Positions 24,001 through 30,000 of a stretch of DNA of 64,000 bases are shown in pieces; within the stretch, counting starts at the first letter, position 1, and every line of letters starts with the position of its first letter. The stretch comes from Syntrophorhabdaceae bacterium. Lineage in GTDB: Bacteria > Desulfobacterota > Syntrophorhabdia > Syntrophorhabdales > Syntrophorhabdaceae. Location: contig OY762209.1 in NCBI GenBank assembly GCA_963665295.1, positions 2,624,001 through 2,688,000 of the forward strand. Reading direction: 5' to 3'. The position numbers were made by a program.

Positions 24001-27000
24001 GGGCCTCTGTGATGAAGTAGAGGGCGTTCTTGACCATGGAGTCGGTCCTCTCGAGGGCCTCCTGACTCATTACTCCCAGTCCCAGGGCATTTTCGAAGGC
24101 GTCTTTCACCACGTTGAGGGATACCCTGCTGAATATCTCCGCCTTCTGATCGTCCGACGGCCCCTGGTTTTGGAGGATCGTTCCCAGGTGATCCTCAAGG
24201 TATTCTTCGTACTTGAACTCCTCGTCGAGGGTAACGAAGACCTCCTTCATCCTGCTGGCCGAGAGTCGCTGGATCTGGTCCTCCGTGACCTCGTTGCCTT
24301 CGCGCGCCCAAAGCACATGCTGGCCCAGTGGGGAAAGTATGTAGATTTTGAATTTCGGCATGCTCCCCGGTATAATCGCTCCCGGGGGGATGGTGATGAA
24401 CTTTTCCTTATCCATGAAACGGACTCCCTGTTGTTTGATTCGAGCAGGCGCTTATTCTCTTGCGTTGAAAGAAAAGCCTCCTATTGCCCGTCTCCCGCCG
24501 TTTTTCCCCGGTCACGTCGCCGGGACCGGGCCGGGAGTCAATTGTTTTCGCATACTTGAGCAAACCGCTAATCAATGTACAATAAATATATCATTATTTA
24601 CCAAAGGTGCAATATAAATGTCACTGTCCGGCCCTTGCGCGGTCCGTCCCCTTCCCGGCGGCCCGGCACCGGGGTTATGGGGTCCGGAAGGGACCGTCAT
24701 TCGGGGTCAACCGGCCTACCGGTTGACAAACGCCTGTCTTTTCTTAATAATATGGTATACAGGCGCGGGACGCCTTAAAAAGCGATAGGAGCGGAATGAA
24801 CGGTATGCGTGAGATTCGAAAGTCGAACAAGATGGACAACATATGTTATGAAATTAGGGGGCCCCTGCTCAAGGCGGCGAAACGCCTCGAAGAGGAAGGG
24901 TATACTATTATCAAGCTGAATAGCGGGAATCCTCCCGCTTTCGGGATCAACGCACCGGATGAGATAATCCATGACGTGACCCTCAATATCAGGGCCGCCC
25001 AGGCCTATGGTGATTCGAAAGGTCTTTTTTCGGCCCGCAAGACGATTATGCAGCAGTGCCAGTTGAGGGGTATCGAGGGCGTGGAGATTGAGGACATTTA
25101 CGTGGGCAACGGCGTGTCCGAAATGATCATGATGGCTATGCAGGGACTTCTCAACAACGGGGATGAAATGCTTGTCCCGTCCCCCGATTATCCACTCTGG
25201 ACCGCCGCGGTCACCCTTTCCGGAGGGACCGCCGTGCATTACATCTGCGATGAATCATCGGAGTGGATGCCTGACATCGAGGACATGGAATCGAAGGTTA
25301 CCCTGAAGACGAGGGGCATCGTGCTCATCAACCCCAATAACCCCACGGGTGCGGTCTACACAAAAGAAGTGCTCCTGAAGATAGTCGAAATGGCGGAAAA
25401 GCACGATCTTATTATATTCGCCGACGAAATATACGACCAGATCCTTTATGACGGCGCGGAGCATATCCCTGTCGCCGCCCTCTCAAAGGATGTCTTCTTC
25501 GTGACTTTCAACGGGCTGTCGAAGTCCCACCGCATTCCCGGCATGAGGGCGGGCTGGATGATCGTGAGCGGCAGGAAATCCCTTGCGAAAGACTACACCA
25601 ATGAAGGCCTGGATACCCTGTCGAATATGAGGATGTGCGGCAACATGGTGGGCCAGCTTGCCATCCAGACGGCCCTGGGAGGTTATCAGAGCCTCAGGCG
25701 GTTGATAAGCCCCGGCGGCAGGCTCTATGAGCAGCGGAGAGCCGCCTACGAGTGTTTCAACTCGATACCGGGCATTACCTGTGTAAAGCCCATGGGCGCC
25801 CTCTATCTTTTTCCGAAGATCGATGCCGAAAGGTATGGTATTCGTGACGACCAGCAGTTCCTTCTCGACTTCCTCATGGAGAAGAAGGTGCTTATGGTGC
25901 AGGGGACGGGGTTTAACTGGCACGCCCCGGACCACTTCCGGGTCGTCTTCCTCCCTTCCGTCGAAGAAATTCAGGCCGTGGCGGAACGGATGGCCGATTT
26001 CCTGAAGGACTACCACCAGTAACCGGGTCGCTGCCGGTGGAGGTCAGTAGCGATAAGGCCGTGGGTGATGGTTCCACGCGTCCATGAAACTCATGAGCCC
26101 GAGGTCCCTCATCCTCCGGTGGAGATTGCCCTGCGTTCCTCTATCCCCGCCCACAGCTCGCTCGATGCGCGCCAATCGGTACAGGATATAGCGGTCCAAG
26201 TCCCTGAACTGCTCTTTTATTCCGTCGCTCGCCGCATCATTGAGAAAAGACGCGGGCCAGCCTATCCCCGTCGCATGGGTGAGGACCTTGTTGTCCGCCG
26301 TCATCCGGTCGGGCGGAAACCCGAGTAAGGTGCTGATCCGCCATATCTTCTCCGCGAGGGGCATGATACAGGGGTCGGTGTGGACTCCTGCCGGGGCCAT
26401 GTGACGGGCGTGACATTTCCTTGGGCCGTCCTGCACGGCCTCAATGCGGGTGAGGAACCTGACCCTTCGCCTGATCTTTTCGATGGTCGCGTCCCTTATG
26501 CATATTATGGGCTGGTTATCCTCGTTGATCCTGTAATGGTAGGCACAGAAATCAAACCCGTGTTCGGGGCCCGCCTCGTTTTCCGCCACGGGATAGAGGC
26601 CCGCGATAGTCGCCTTGCCCTCGTTTACCCGCTGACCCAGTTCCGTAAGGACAAAGCGTTTCATGTCTTCCCGCACCTCTTCGGCATAAGCCGGATCGTT
26701 CAGGAAAAGGACCACATCGTCCCCGAAGCGGCAAAAGGGTATGCGCTTGACCTTTATGTAAGTGTCCAACTGGTGGAGGTAGATGTTGGTGAAGAGAGGC
26801 GTGAGGCCCGTGCCCATCCCTATGCCCGTGCCCGGGGTCATGAGGACCTCATCGACCCTTGAAAAATACCTCCCCATGAGCCGCTTCAGAAAATCGCAAT
26901 CCTCATCGCTCCATCCGGCCTTCTGCGCCCGATCGAGGATCAGCGCCACGAGTCGCTCCTGGGGGACGGTTTCGTTGAAGGATTTTACATCGAGGCGAAG

Positions 27001-30000
27001 GACGACCCGATAGCCTTTATTGAGCCCCGATATGACCCGCCGCACTGTCTCCTTAGTCCCCCTGTTGGCGATATAGGCGCAGGACTCGCGGAAGAAGTAC
27101 TTCGTGGGAAACAGTTTCCCGAAAAGAGCGGTCAATGCCCCCACCACGAGAGTATCGGGGAAGGTGGGTTTCAGCATGATCCTGTACCGGGACCTCTCCC
27201 GGGGCGTGAGGCTGCGGTACTCGCTTTGGGGCAGGGTGTTCTTTCTGGGACGCATCCCTTCCTTGTCCGGCTCCTGGTACTTGAGAAGGGCCGTTACCCT
27301 CATGCGTGAAAATTCATAGCTGTCCTTCCGCATAAGCCTGCAGAGCCTGTTGATCGCGTTTTCCGCCGCCGGTGAAATGGTAAGGCGGATCGGGTCGGTC
27401 GGCTTTTCAGGGCGGGTCTTCTTTTTCACCGCAAGCCATTTGGGGAGAGGGGCCTTCCTTGGAAAAGGCTGATGGATCCGAGACCTGAGGGCTACGGCCT
27501 CTTCGCCTTTGAAAAGATGGCCCAGGGGGTCCCGCACCAGTATGTGGGACAGGAGCAGCATGGCCAGGGATTTGGACTTCCGCCTGATCACCTGTTGATA
27601 TGTCTTCTCGTCCGACAGGATATCTTTCAGCATAGGGTTAAGAGCCGGCATGGGTTTTCGAGGCTCGTTCCGTTTCGGTGGCCCTTTTAGGGGGACCATA
27701 GATTAAGATCAGTACTCGAAATTGCCCATACCGCCTGCTCTAATTCTAGCAGCACCGCGGCCTCCCGTAAAGGGGTTAATGCAGGATTCCACTCTTTGCC
27801 CCGCTCGCGCCCGACACTATCCGGATTCCCGGTGGTGAGGCCGGGTAGGGACGAACCGGCCCTTCGGCAAGAACCGGAAGTTGACCATTCATTGGACTCT
27901 TCAGGGGAGGCAAGACATGGTGGGATCGTGGATCGGCTCCCTTTGTCGGTTCCTCGATACATCAGGCTGTCACCACCCCGGCACGCAAATCAATCGGTCT
28001 GCCGTACTCCCGGCGAGAACTACCGTTCATCGGTAGATTGCCGGATTGACCCTGTCAACCCTGTCTCATGCACTGTAACATGCCGATTCGGTCTGCCCCA
28101 TGGCAGGCACTTTGCCTTGCCCACAATAACATTCTACGCATGATTATCATGAGCTTCTGTGTTATCGTGGCAGGGAGCGAGGAGCAACACTGGGAAGATA
28201 TGAGACGTCCTTCTCACCAAACGTTTGCTGGACCTTATTCCCGGTACGAAATCCTCCAAAGTATGTCTTCGTCCTTCTCCGGGAATATGCGGTATCCGTA
28301 CTTCGCCGTCGGCTGGGCGCAGTTGGTTCCGGACGTGACCGGTATTTCGATCCGCGCTATCAATATGCCTGGTTCACAGTGCTTGCCTGTTTCATCCCTC
28401 CCTTTGTGAGGGTTACCTTGATGCCTCCCGACCTGCTTTTCTTGGTGGTATTGGCTTTTACGGTATAACCCACCGACCCACTCCCTGTACCGTGACTCTC
28501 GGAGGTGATTTTGATCCACGAAGCTCCCTGGGACTGTGCGGTCCATCGGCAGTCGCCGGGCGTGACATCCACTGTGAGCGTGCCGGTTCCGCCGTCCTTG
28601 GCAAAAGATGCGGTCGAGGGAGCGAGGGAGGTGACTGCGCATGCCGTTCCCGCCTGGGTTATGGGGAACGAGAGGGGGCCTACGGAGACCCTTCCGGTCC
28701 TTTTGGACGAGGTCGGGTTATTCAACACCCCAATCTGCACTGAACCCTTCTTCCCGTCGAATGTGTAATCGGAATAAGCGATCCAATCTGCGCTTGCTGA
28801 TATGCTCGGCGCGGGACAGTCCGTCCCCGATGCTGTGATTGTTACCGGAAGGTTTCCTTTCGTACCGGTGAATTCCGCGCTCGCAGGCGAGATGACATAG
28901 GTACAGGTATTGTTTGATTGGGCCATTGCGGAGCCCGCTGCCACGAAAGTTCCTTTACCATATGTAACCGAGGAAAACCCGACCATGGACGGAAATGATG
29001 CTTGGTGATAAGGCAACTCTCTTTTCGTCCAGCCAGCCCCGTTTGACGAGGTGAGTAGGAGCGGACGGTCCGAATCTATCCCCACTGCCACGAAGACGTT
29101 GTTGCCATAAGTGACCTGAGATATAATTGCATCGGATCTTGGCATTTTGTGAGCCGACCACGTGATTCCGTCGGGAGACGTAAAGGCATAGGGCACCGAT
29201 CTTTCTCCCACAAGTGCCACGGCAGTGTAAATGCCATTCCCGTATGCGACTGTCGCAAAGTCGATTCCTTCGATAACCGGCGATATCCGAGTCCATGTTG
29301 CTCCATCGAACGAGGTAAGAATGGCGCACCGGTCTCCCACGGCCACGAAGGCACCGTTCCCGTAAACGACGCCGGTGAGATACTTCTCTGACGACTGTGC
29401 CGTCCACGTCGCGCCGTCGCGTGACGTGATGATGACGCCGTTTCCCACCCCTACAAAGGTTCCGTTACCGTACGTGACGGCATCGAGACATGCAGTAGTA
29501 TCGACCAGACTTCTTTTTTGCCACGTTACTCCATCGGGAGAGGTCGCCGTAACGCCGTACCATCCCACCCCCACAAAAGTCCCGTTGCCGTACGTGAGAG
29601 CACGGATGCCGGAAATGCCGGGCGAAATACTTTCCCACGTCACGCCGTCCGGGGAGATCGAGGTAGCGCCCGAAGGTCCCACCCCTACAAAGGTTCCATT
29701 ACCGTACGCGACCGCTTCTATCCCCACAACGGTGTACGAGCGTTCCGTCCAAGTGAATCCGTCAGGGGAGGTATAAATGCAGTGCCGCCATGGGACGTTG
29801 AGCGCGGATCGGGGTAGTGAGCCCTCCTCCCCCACTGCGACAAAAGTATTGTTGCCGTACGCGACGGCGCAAGGATAGCTATGGAAGCCTGATACGACTG
29901 CCTCAAAGGACCAGGTAATACCGTCTGCCGAGGTAATGATCCCATGGTCATGCCATGTTCCCCATTGCGCAATGAAGAGGTCATTGCAGAAGATAATATT

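Follow-up and report, generated by a model that had tools for sequence, protein, structure and literature searches.

The RT locus and its start codon

The window, i.e. the whole stretch of 64,000 nucleotides analyzed here, carries a reverse transcriptase (RT) gene on its minus strand, within an open reading frame at 26044-27699. Called from the start codon that is kept in homologues, the gene spans 26044..27633 (529 aa plus stop). The protein comprises an N-terminal extension, RT0-7 fingers and palm, an insertion, and an X/thumb-like C-terminus whose motifs align with RGWxNYY and LDxWIRxRL of group II RTs; it has no D/En domain. Just upstream, on the same strand, lies a leader RNA stem-loop of ~90 nt (27646..27734). 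We compared this locus with 9 further family loci (L001-L009). Conservation between loci sets in about 120 nt ahead of the ATG and extends no further than the stop codon. No neighbor gene is shared between family loci, which bears out the earlier note on this DNA. The next gene is convergent, and its stop lies just 21 nt from that of the RT.

The gene had previously been described as a stand-alone FGDD RT of 535 aa. The reading frame is real, lies on the minus strand, and stands alone, but its start shifts. Specifically, the annotated ATG of the 535-aa call (27649..27651, minus strand) falls within the 3′ arm of leader stem P1 and is replaced by ACG or GCG at 5 of the 10 loci (L001, L002, L004, L005, and L009), where the 5′ arm of the hairpin has changed to compensate. 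As such, ATG 27651 is probably not the true start. The conserved start is ATG 27633: the N-terminus ML(K/T/A)(E/D), here MLKE..., is shared by 16 of 19 homologues and all 10 loci. This ATG sits 12 nt past the end of the stem (7-18 nt across loci), behind a pyrimidine-rich spacer (27634..27645, minus strand), so the closing stem does not reach the RT translation start, contrary to what had been claimed.

No Shine-Dalgarno (SD) sequence precedes ATG 27633 or its counterparts in any of the 10 loci. The best pairing of a generic anti-SD at the RT start is -2.4 to +1.9 kcal/mol across these loci. Among the 33 other long ORFs in the window, by contrast, 21 score -5.5 or lower. The true AUG is also unpaired in all 9 valid leader folds (nine loci, L005 excluded). 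The idea that the RNA locks RT translation therefore needs revision, because this AUG lies past the stem and takes part in no pairing; what stands is that the stem abuts an SD-less start in 10 of 10 loci. The ORF is interrupted in 3 of the 10 loci, with one frameshift each in L004 and L008, whereas L005 has a frameshift and also lacks ~230 aa at the C-terminus; some of the copies are hence in decay or misassembled.

Structure and conservation of the leader RNA

On the minus strand, the leader consists of a P1 stem (27725-27734 with 27646-27654), a CA bulge (27723-27724), a P2 stem (27715-27722 with 27655-27662), and a P3 apical hairpin (27693-27698 with 27679-27684). The loop of P3 is variable and its stem covaries, while the large internal loop between P2 and P3 is conserved in sequence though unpaired. 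A plain operator would need no such conserved loops, and a catalytic or template role fits them at least equally well. Two variants of the internal loop track RT clades, which plain co-inheritance could explain.

The minimum free energy of the leader is -41.4 kcal/mol (z -4.5), and none of 200 shuffled sequences is equally stable. The hairpin is present in all 10 family loci, and in their alignment, which was fitted to the model and leans towards it, 93.4% of the cells of the 23 pairs are paired, vs 25-54% when the partners are slid. Compensatory changes occur in 8 of the 23 pairs, and none of 500 shuffles reaches the observed values, in a sample of 10 sequences from about 8 lineages (two pairs being near-identical). 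These results confirm and strengthen the previous proposal of a conserved ~90-nt hairpin upstream of the RT. The hairpin model, R1, scores 76.8-105.3 bits in sense vs 21.5-39.1 bits in antisense, and, together with the G-U pairs, these scores show that the leader is transcribed from the same strand as the RT.

A scan of 25000-31000 against Rfam 15 returns no family at E ≤ 1. The leader RNA is exclusively linked to the RT: R1 has a single match in its own genome, that of the leader, and among 151 sampled genomes of the phylum it matches in 2, both times beside the RT. A promoter-like site (TTTACG, 17 nt, TG-n-TAGAAT; 27743..27771, minus strand) precedes the hairpin, although this single site is weak alone, given that 0.9 such sites are expected by chance. 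In most loci, inspection by eye shows a box resembling TAnAnT 7-8 nt before P1, in most cases with a TG upstream of it. If used, the promoter-like site would start transcription at P1 or 1-2 nt before it.

Family and classification of the RT

The family is small: a search of 5.8 billion proteins yields 21 sequences at E ≤ 0.001, including the query itself and one that reaches only 3e-12. At E ≤ 1e-30, 9 clusters are found among 1.84 billion representatives. Of 401 genomes sampled from the phylum, 2 (own genome counted) contain full-length members, i.e. a patchy spread, and no copy of the RT was found in viral contigs. The full-length ORFs are 38-57% identical, share many invariant residues, and lie in different genomic settings.

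The only Pfam domain in the RT is RVT_1 (2.6e-7), which reproduces the earlier result. Searched against structures, the family profile gives its best matches with group II RTs (6ar1, the GsI-IIC RT, 4.2e-24; 7uim, 2.7e-22), followed at a distance by DRT9 (1.4e-8), G2L4 (4e-7), and Drt3a (1.7e-5). Likewise, the best NCBIfam match is group_II_RT_mat (TIGR04416; 83.1 bits, E 2e-23), below its cut-off of 300 bits, so that, by these profiles, the RT is a relative of this group II intron RT/maturase family and not a member. The AF2 model (pLDDT 81.3, pTM 0.78) has 6ar1 as its top Foldseek match (6e-15), with DRT9 (TMq ~0.5) and G2L4 also found; model quality and matches agree with those first reported.

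The note had placed the RT with defense-associated systems such as DRT2 and DRT9, and this assignment is not supported. Membership in DRT2, DRT3a, DRT4, or DRT5 is rejected, every score being below the curated NCBIfam cut-off (Drt3a 57 vs 200; Drt2 17.5 vs 390; Drt5 10.8 vs 550; Drt4 10.4 vs 450). Matches to PADLOC models (UG26 3.7e-18, UG4 1.4e-15, and Drt9 1.4e-11, in PADLOC-DB of 2023) are close to the figures given before and, as judged then, weak and generic, because ordinary group II RTs give much stronger matches to these models, with the group II RT P0044, for instance, reaching 1e-42 with Drt9 and 6e-53 with UG17. No restriction, Abi, or other classic defense domain was found among 24 flanking genes at 8 family loci, nor any copy in viral contigs. 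Marginal cases among the flanking genes are one that resembles phage metallopeptidases (L001), one for an ABC protein with a weak AAA_21 sub-hit (L006), and one for a protein of caspase/FGE-sulfatase type (L007).

A retron was also considered and rejected, with 25.9 bits for retron_St85_RT vs a cut-off of 235 and no Rfam retron RNA match. The same applies to a mobile group II intron, given that 25000-31000 holds no Rfam 15 match, that only 21 nt remain before the convergent gene, and that conservation runs only from about -120 to the stop. Since the RT has its best matches among group II RTs, falls below every NCBIfam cut-off for DRT, retron, and group II families, and has no ribozyme, conserved neighbor, or defense context, we read it as a new, unclassified stand-alone group II-like RT. 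What the note had said of its pairing is upheld, i.e. a compact conserved structured RNA always lies directly upstream, with the hairpin at all 10 loci and R1 matching, in the genomes scanned, only beside the RT.

Active site of the RT

The RT retains all three catalytic Asp residues. Motif C (RT5; 26716..26727, minus strand) translates as FGDD, and in the alignment of 19 homologues it reads FGDD in 17 and YGDD in 2. The claimed invariance of F309-G310-D311-D312 accordingly holds for G310, D311, and D312 and fails for F309. Five residues past the motif-A Asp (D221) lies N226 (P0002 numbering; codon 26974..26976, minus strand), invariant in 19 of 19 members, with Asp at that position in one relative (P0032). 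To our knowledge, this position holds an aromatic steric gate in all RTs. An ungapped HMM alignment, with which MAFFT concurs, sets DvksFNetV of the RT opposite D138-LEKF-F143-DRV of 6ar1, and F143 is the aromatic steric gate of GsI-IIC.

Overall, the active site reads FN/GMG/FGDD vs FF/PQG/YADD in group II RTs, including a motif-B Gln replaced by Met. These changes are fixed and common to a wider clade of 28-34% identical relatives, in which motif A reads [S/x]FNETV and motif C reads xGDD. RNA-dependent RNA polymerases (RdRPs) lack the aromatic gate residue and gain rNTP selectivity through hydrogen bonds to the 2′-OH. The residues at the active site hint at ribonucleotide use by the RT, and its product may contain ribonucleotides, because Asn replaces the aromatic steric gate. 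We know of no prokaryotic RT in which a fixed loss of the aromatic gate is combined with an RdRP-like GDD; our literature search for prokaryotic RTs with such a loss found no report, which does not prove that none exists.

Possible roles of the RT and its leader

Given these observations, we tentatively favor a domesticated stand-alone RT of group II ancestry that binds its own 90-nt leader for translational control and ribonucleoprotein assembly. By analogy with DIVa of group II introns, the hairpin is most likely the binding site of the RT itself. The RT mRNA would begin with this dedicated stem-loop, if transcription starts where predicted, and the RT would bind it as group II intron proteins bind DIVa at the start of their own ORF. 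Such binding could hold down translation of an SD-less message in which a very stable stem precedes the start by 7-18 nt, and it could assemble enzyme and RNA into the ribonucleoprotein that would be the working form.

It is also possible, though we consider this rather unlikely, that the hairpin provides the RT with a template, a primer scaffold, or both, in the manner of DRT2, DRT9, DRT10, UG27, and retrons, with the variable apical hairpin between conserved single-stranded motifs being copied into a short product. The sequencing runs listed consist of DNA contigs identical to the window. The conserved basal stem and loop motifs around an apical hairpin with a variable loop and a covarying stem recall the units of UG27, where, in the portion of the source drawn on here, reverse transcription begins and ends at conserved motifs flanking a central hairpin (10.64898/2026.09.22.753630). 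The strict linkage of leader and RT and the presence of DRT9 RT-ncRNA complexes among the top structural matches point the same way. However, every model tested puts the RT outside UG/Abi class 2, the flanking genes scanned give no defense context, and the leader has 90 nt vs ~140-150 nt for DRT10 and UG27 RNAs, as far as the source portions tell. Moreover, no terminator or processing signal separates the RNA from the ORF, and by default it is therefore an mRNA leader.

An RT-independent cis-regulatory leader, i.e. a riboswitch-like sensor, a host-factor site, or a 5′ stabilizer that sets RT expression, seems less probable still. The leader lies where the mRNA is predicted to begin and immediately ahead of the SD-less start, which would suit such a role, and the big conserved internal loop could form a ligand pocket. 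It resembles no Rfam family, however, its internal-loop variants follow the RT clades (co-inheritance aside), and in its own genome and the 151 sampled ones it was found before no other gene, which would be unusual for a general sensor. The residues of the active site raise a further reading, in which this family and the wider clade are ribonucleotide-using polymerases on a group II RT scaffold, i.e. cellular, RNA-guided RNA or mixed RNA/DNA polymerases with the leader as promoter, primer, or template; we regard it as a long shot. Finally, the locus could be the functionless remnant of a decaying group II intron, in which the ORF and the first part of domain IV have outlasted the ribozyme. The group II lineage of the RT, the 3 interrupted copies, and the patchy spread agree with decay, but the diverged full-length ORFs with their invariant residues, the compensatory changes that preserve hairpin pairing, and the fixed active-site changes argue against it, as do the missing ribozyme trace in Rfam and the 21 nt left before the convergent stop, and we hold this to be very improbable.

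Retrons, DRT2, DRT9, DRT10, and UG27 each revealed a new mode of nucleic acid synthesis, and several became tools. The pair described here is very compact, with an enzyme of ~530 aa and a 90-nt RNA in a 1.7-kb cassette in which nothing else is conserved, and its origin is the group II intron lineage, not the UG/Abi one. As such, the family may reveal what a group II intron protein retains of its RNA partnership after ribozyme loss, and the lost steric gate makes the question of DNA vs RNA products directly testable. A rare RT with its own leader RNA and without the rNTP-excluding residue may be a new RNA-guided polymerase; should the RT do no more than control its own translation via the leader, the G2L group would gain a neat member of modest import.

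Comparison with known systems

For the loss of the steric gate, a precedent exists in DinB2 of Mycobacterium smegmatis, a Y-family polymerase from a natural clade with Leu in place of the aromatic gate, described as adept at ribonucleotide incorporation (PMC4176160). In DinB2, as in the RT with its Asn, the gate is naturally replaced; the polymerase fold is unrelated, and the precedent concerns only the meaning of gate loss.

UG/Abi class 2 systems (DRT2, DRT9, DRT10/UG17, and UG27) and retrons resemble the locus in that an RT gene adjoins a dedicated structured RNA, and DRT9 complexes also resemble the RT model structurally (TMq ~0.5). Unlike these systems, the RT is rejected by the family models and has no effector, accessory gene, or defense context; unlike the RNAs of RT-ncRNA defense systems, the leader is just ~90 nt long, lies right before the start codon, and has no match in Rfam.

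G2L4 and other free-standing group II-like RTs share with the RT a maturase-type domain, the lack of an intron RNA, and an altered motif C. In the source passages, motif C is YIDD in G2L4 (PMC4244168) and YVDD in G2L3/UG10, G2L5 has DD changed to DN and an N-terminal extension of ~500 aa, and G2L1 and G2L2 are CRISPR-associated (Simon and Zimmerly 2008; Toro and Nisa-Martinez 2014). As described there, none of G2L1-5 fits the RT, and those passages describe no cognate RNA for G2L4. Identity with G2L4 was rejected on FGDD/YGDD vs YIDD and on profile E-values to 9d5x and 9d4s of just 4e-7 to 5e-7.

Group II RT/maturases (LtrA of Ll.LtrB; GsI-IIC, 6ar1) are closest in profile and fold and share the X/thumb-like motifs. 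In the part of PMC1874635 consulted, the DIVa stem-loop of LtrB is the primary binding site of the protein and a translational operator, and LtrA, by binding it, occludes its own SD and autoregulates translation (PMC1874635, citing Singh et al. 2002). In contrast to a group II intron locus, ours has neither a ribozyme nor a D/En domain, and, unlike DIVa, the leader stem holds neither an SD nor the start codon. Ahead of 18 group II-type RT loci from this phylum, and ahead of the sister-family RT, R1 found no similar element, so homology of the leader to DIVa is unsupported and only the analogy stands: as in group II RTs with DIVa, a stem-loop lies right at the start of the RT ORF.

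Classification of the reverse transcriptase

We file the system as a stand-alone group II-like reverse transcriptase (RT) that is encoded in cis with an RNA partner and has no aromatic gate in its active site. Pfam recognizes only RVT_1 in this protein, and its best NCBIfam match is a group II intron RT/maturase model (83 bits vs a cut-off of 300), with Drt2, Drt3a, Drt4, Drt5, and a retron model all far under their cut-offs. PADLOC (2023 version) returns RT (2.8e-23), UG26 (3.7e-18), and Drt3a (1.8e-17), and the UG/DRT matches carry no class information because ordinary group II RTs match the same models much more strongly. 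When the family profile is compared with all PDB sequences, the GsI-IIC RT comes first (4.2e-24), followed by other group II RTs (approximately 1e-22), DRT9 (1.4e-8), G2L4 (4e-7), and Drt3a (1.7e-5). The AF2 model (pLDDT 81.3, pTM 0.78) has its best structural match in 6ar1, the GsI-IIC RT structure (6e-15, TMq 0.52), and then in DRT9 complexes, group II RNPs, and G2L4. Over its last 100 residues, the protein aligns with X/thumb motifs of group II RTs (i.e. GWPxSF with RGWxNYY, and LDRYIxYRL with LDxWIRxRL), and a D/En domain is not present.

None of the described G2L classes fits, judged by the accessible portions of their published descriptions: the motif is YIDD in G2L4 and YVDD in G2L3/UG10, G2L5 has DD changed to DN, and G2L1 and G2L2 are CRISPR-linked (PMC2602772, PMC4244168). 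The closest ESM Atlas clusters are of the generic RVT_1 kind; a viral cluster at rank 29, with RdRP_1 on 22% of its members, is a lead only. No description of this RT–hairpin family was found in the passages of the literature searched, and the family may belong to a recently named group.

A covarying hairpin in the RT leader

Upstream of the RT gene, 94 nt at 27643–27736 (minus strand) form one long stem-loop, with −41.4 kcal/mol over a 111-nt stretch, a z score of −4.5, and none of 200 shuffles as stable. The hairpin proper (27646–27734) consists of a 10-bp P1, a conserved CA bulge, an 8-bp P2, a large internal loop with the sequence of both strands conserved, and an apical stem of 5–9 bp with a loop that varies in length and sequence. 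Two subtypes of the internal loop, UGAUCUUAAUC with CCA(A/C)CGAAAC and UUAGCCUUAU(C/A/U) with CC(A/G)ACNNNACC, track RT clades. Single-sequence folds disagree on any pairing across its strands, and it is treated here as a loop.

A covariance model, R1, was built, and pairs were counted on an alignment of ten sequences that was itself fitted to R1 and that represents only about 8 lineages (L003 and L006 are close, as are L001 and L009). On this alignment, 93.4% of the 229 cells of the 23 hairpin pairs are paired, vs 25.6–54.1% in a control with the 3′ partners slid by 1–3 columns. Compensatory, both-sided changes are seen in 8 of the 23 pairs, and the observed pairing, compensatory-pair count, and covariation score are each matched by 0 of 500 shuffles. 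RNAalifold on a MAFFT alignment recovers only 15 pairs, which correspond to P1 and part of P2; the remainder were missed, as the two RNA subtypes differ in the register of their apical stem.

R1 scores are 76.8–105.3 bits on the sense strand vs 21.5–39.1 bits on the antisense strand, and several hairpin pairs are G-U in some loci. Together, these features indicate that the RT strand is the one from which the RNA is read, and the G-U pairs with the 40–65-bit strand asymmetry lead us to reject a palindrome at the DNA level. A terminator is also rejected, given that no U-tract follows the stem and that the upstream genes vary in identity and orientation among loci. No Rfam match was found at E ≤ 1 across 25000–31000.

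RT and hairpin as a single conserved unit

R1 matches once in the 5.5-Mb genome, and of 151 sampled genomes of the phylum, 2 have matches (this one and G001), each immediately upstream of the RT gene. The hairpin is not shown to be homologous to group II leaders: with filters off, R1 was run over 18 of the phylum's group II-type RT loci and over two further loci, L010 and L012, and its only hits there were hairpins at chance level (best 18 bits, E 0.045). Similarity between family loci begins approximately 95–125 nt before the ATG and stops at the stop codon, and no flanking genes are common to the loci, except among very close relatives. The hairpin and the RT behave as a single unit of inheritance. 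The earlier note had proposed a new RT-plus-RNA family, and this proposal is supported.

A consensus scan, for which chance alone predicts one such site over the stretch, places a promoter-like site (TTTACG, 17 nt, TG-n-TAGAAT) at 27771–27743 on the minus strand, and by eye most loci have a similar box 7–8 nt before P1. Transcription would start at the foot of P1. Pfam recognizes no ORF in the approximately 590 nt upstream of this promoter-like site (27772–28359), and this segment is not conserved at any of the related loci. No RNA data set was found to cover a 2.3-kb stretch around the locus, and the DNA contigs that do cover it are identical to the window and are probably its source; they show no variants and no joint inside the locus, their single joint being at the stretch edge (29443–29500). 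The same-genus genome G396 has an aminotransferase orthologue (80% identity), and the insertion boundaries are not definable from this genome because nothing else in 14 kb is syntenic.

The conserved start codon of the RT lies outside the stem

The longest RT ORF runs from 27699 to 26044 on the minus strand (551 aa), and a 535-aa gene call made previously begins at the ATG at 27651. We find that 16 of 19 aligned homologues share the N-terminus ML(K/T/A)(E/D)xL(S/R/A)D, the equivalent of which in the window is the ATG at 27633, and that only 5 of the 19 carry an N-terminal "MPxxxx" extension of 5–6 residues. The DNA of ten loci (the window and L001–L009, the other family loci) explains this extension, because the upstream "ATG" belongs to the RNA stem; specifically, it is ACG or GCG in 5 of the 10, with a matching change in the opposite stem arm. 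Based on the conserved N-terminus and this ten-locus comparison, the RT gene is therefore 26044–27633 (minus strand, 529 aa). The RT and upstream hairpin reported in the earlier note are real, apart from the start codon: the ATG of the gene call it used, 27651, lies inside the stem.

Shine–Dalgarno (SD) complementarity is absent in all ten loci, with −2.4 to +1.9 kcal/mol over the 7–18 pyrimidine-rich bases from P1 to the AUG; in comparison, 21 of 33 other long ORFs in the window score −5.5 kcal/mol or better. The AUG is unpaired in the nine valid single-sequence folds (L005 excluded), and therefore the stem does not sequester the start codon and occupies the spot where the SD helix normally sits. 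The suggestion that the stem reaches into the RT start and may lock it is in need of revision, the real AUG at 27633 being outside the stem.

The RT ORF is interrupted in 3 of the 10 loci. L004 and L008 have one frameshift each, possibly an assembly error. The copy at L005 (4442–5449) is decayed, with a frameshift near 4937–4947, an RT that stops at approximately residue 307 of 540 (i.e. the C-terminal ∼230 residues are missing), and a 1-nt deletion in P1 of its hairpin.

An altered active site

All three catalytic Asp residues are kept (D221, D311, and D312), and three further near-universal RT residues are altered, with changes that are invariant in the family (19-homologue alignment). Motif A reads D221-V-K-S-F-N226-E-T-V, motif B is GIGMG vs PQG of RTs, and motif C is FGDD or YGDD vs YADD of group II RTs. 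N226 lies opposite F143 of the GsI-IIC RT, on which an HMM alignment to 6ar1 (ungapped from D138 to V146) and MAFFT agree. F143, the aromatic gate residue, stacks on the deoxyribose, and a clash with the 2′-OH keeps rNTPs out.

The altered trio is also present in a second tier of relatives at 28–34% identity (P0170 of L010, P0022, P0030, P0034, P0035, P0038, P0040, and P0048). Some second-tier proteins differ at the gate, where P0032 has Asp, P0039 has Ser, and P0031 has Ile. Motif A of P0032 is D-V-R-H-F-D, with Asp at the steric-gate position and hence D-x4-D spacing, which is typical of motif A in RdRPs. P0052 and P0074, more distant proteins with the same C-terminus, retain the canonical FFD, QGG, and ADD. 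In a regular-expression count over 168 proteins, 105 combine an F gate with A in the motif and 28 combine an N gate with G; motif C was mis-assigned in P0030 and P0048 and no motif was found in 18 proteins, many of them fragments. The MMLV RT mutant F155V reportedly incorporates rNTPs, in work by Gao et al. from 1997. DinB2 offers an example from nature in which loss of the gate has led to the use of ribonucleotides, according to the accessible part of its description (PMC4176160).

L010 and L011 carry a sister-family RT, a relative with YGDD and SFNETV that is 25% identical to the RT. A long, strongly folding structure (L010 5623–5737, identical in L011; z −4.0) ends approximately 20 nt before the likely sister-RT start. 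This region holds a tandem repeat with a 15-nt unit, GGGCACAUCCCGUAC, and the L010 gene is flanked by a Mrr-type/type I restriction pair and a SRAP peptidase gene. L010 and L011 share 100% identity in their upstream regions (99.9% across the 8.9 kb aligned) and so offer no variation in which pairs could covary.

Distribution and genomic context

Among 5.8 billion proteins, 21 match at E ≤ 0.001, of which one is the query, one reaches only 3e-12, and 19 have 38–57% identity; 1.84 billion cluster representatives yield 9 clusters at E ≤ 1e-30. Across 185,579 species, each represented by a single genome, a pattern-based scan found 5 loci, all in uncultured MAGs that are of Desulfobacterota type according to their record titles (delta proteobacterium, Syntrophorhabdaceae, and Syntrophaceae). 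Metagenomes hold 4 family loci, and no relative was found in viral contigs. Full-length members are present in 2 of 401 sampled genomes of the phylum, including this one, while the other 19 genomes with a match have it through the RT domain alone or together with some of the thumb, a pattern also given by group II RTs. The one other same-genus genome (93% complete) has no family member.

Most neighbouring genes serve metabolism or signalling or have no known function, and among 24 flanking genes from 8 family loci no classic defence domain was found, whether restriction, Abi, or another. Three neighbours are marginal: in L001 a phage-metallopeptidase-like gene, in L006 an ABC protein with a weak AAA_21 sub-match, and in L007 a caspase/FGE-sulfatase protein. 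The label of DRT-like defence retroelement that the locus had been given is not supported.

The metagenome contig of L007 carries a second, fragmentary RVT_1 ORF (5306–5947, minus strand, 213 aa), which is 3 kb away from the family RT and adjoins the caspase/FGE-sulfatase fusion. The window carries an IS66-family transposase unit in two tandem copies, 1948 bp apart (31026–34921) and 98% identical over the compared 300-nt stretch, with 506-aa ORFs at 31438–32958 and 33386–34906, and each unit is overlapped by an opposite-strand 116-aa ORF (the first at 31147–31497). A very long ORF (2198 aa) spans 36050–42646 on the minus strand.

How the pair may work

A specific protein partner is the simplest reading of the hairpin, because it combines conserved unpaired sequence with covarying stems and was found nowhere else. 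As a conserved candidate for that partner, there is only the RT. We tentatively favour, at somewhat less than even confidence, a ribonucleoprotein in which the RT would bind its leader hairpin and would thereby also limit its own synthesis. The main rival, that the hairpin RNA is copied, appears less probable; it draws on a layout, with conserved flanks, a basal stem, and an apical hairpin that varies, which resembles UG27 units, the central hairpins of which are reverse-transcribed according to the accessible part of the source (10.64898/2026.09.22.753630). These two readings are not exclusive, and binding is needed by both. A leader that works independently of the RT is rather unlikely, and we regard a decaying intron relic as very improbable.

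The RT-leader ribonucleoprotein is favoured because the RT is the sole conserved candidate and because group II proteins offer a parallel. Specifically, the accessible part of PMC1874635, citing Singh et al. 2002, describes how the group II protein LtrA binds the DIVa stem-loop at the start of its own ORF, occludes the SD, and autoregulates translation. LtrA and DIVa are thus a direct precedent, from the RT's own lineage, for the binding of a stem-loop at an ORF start.
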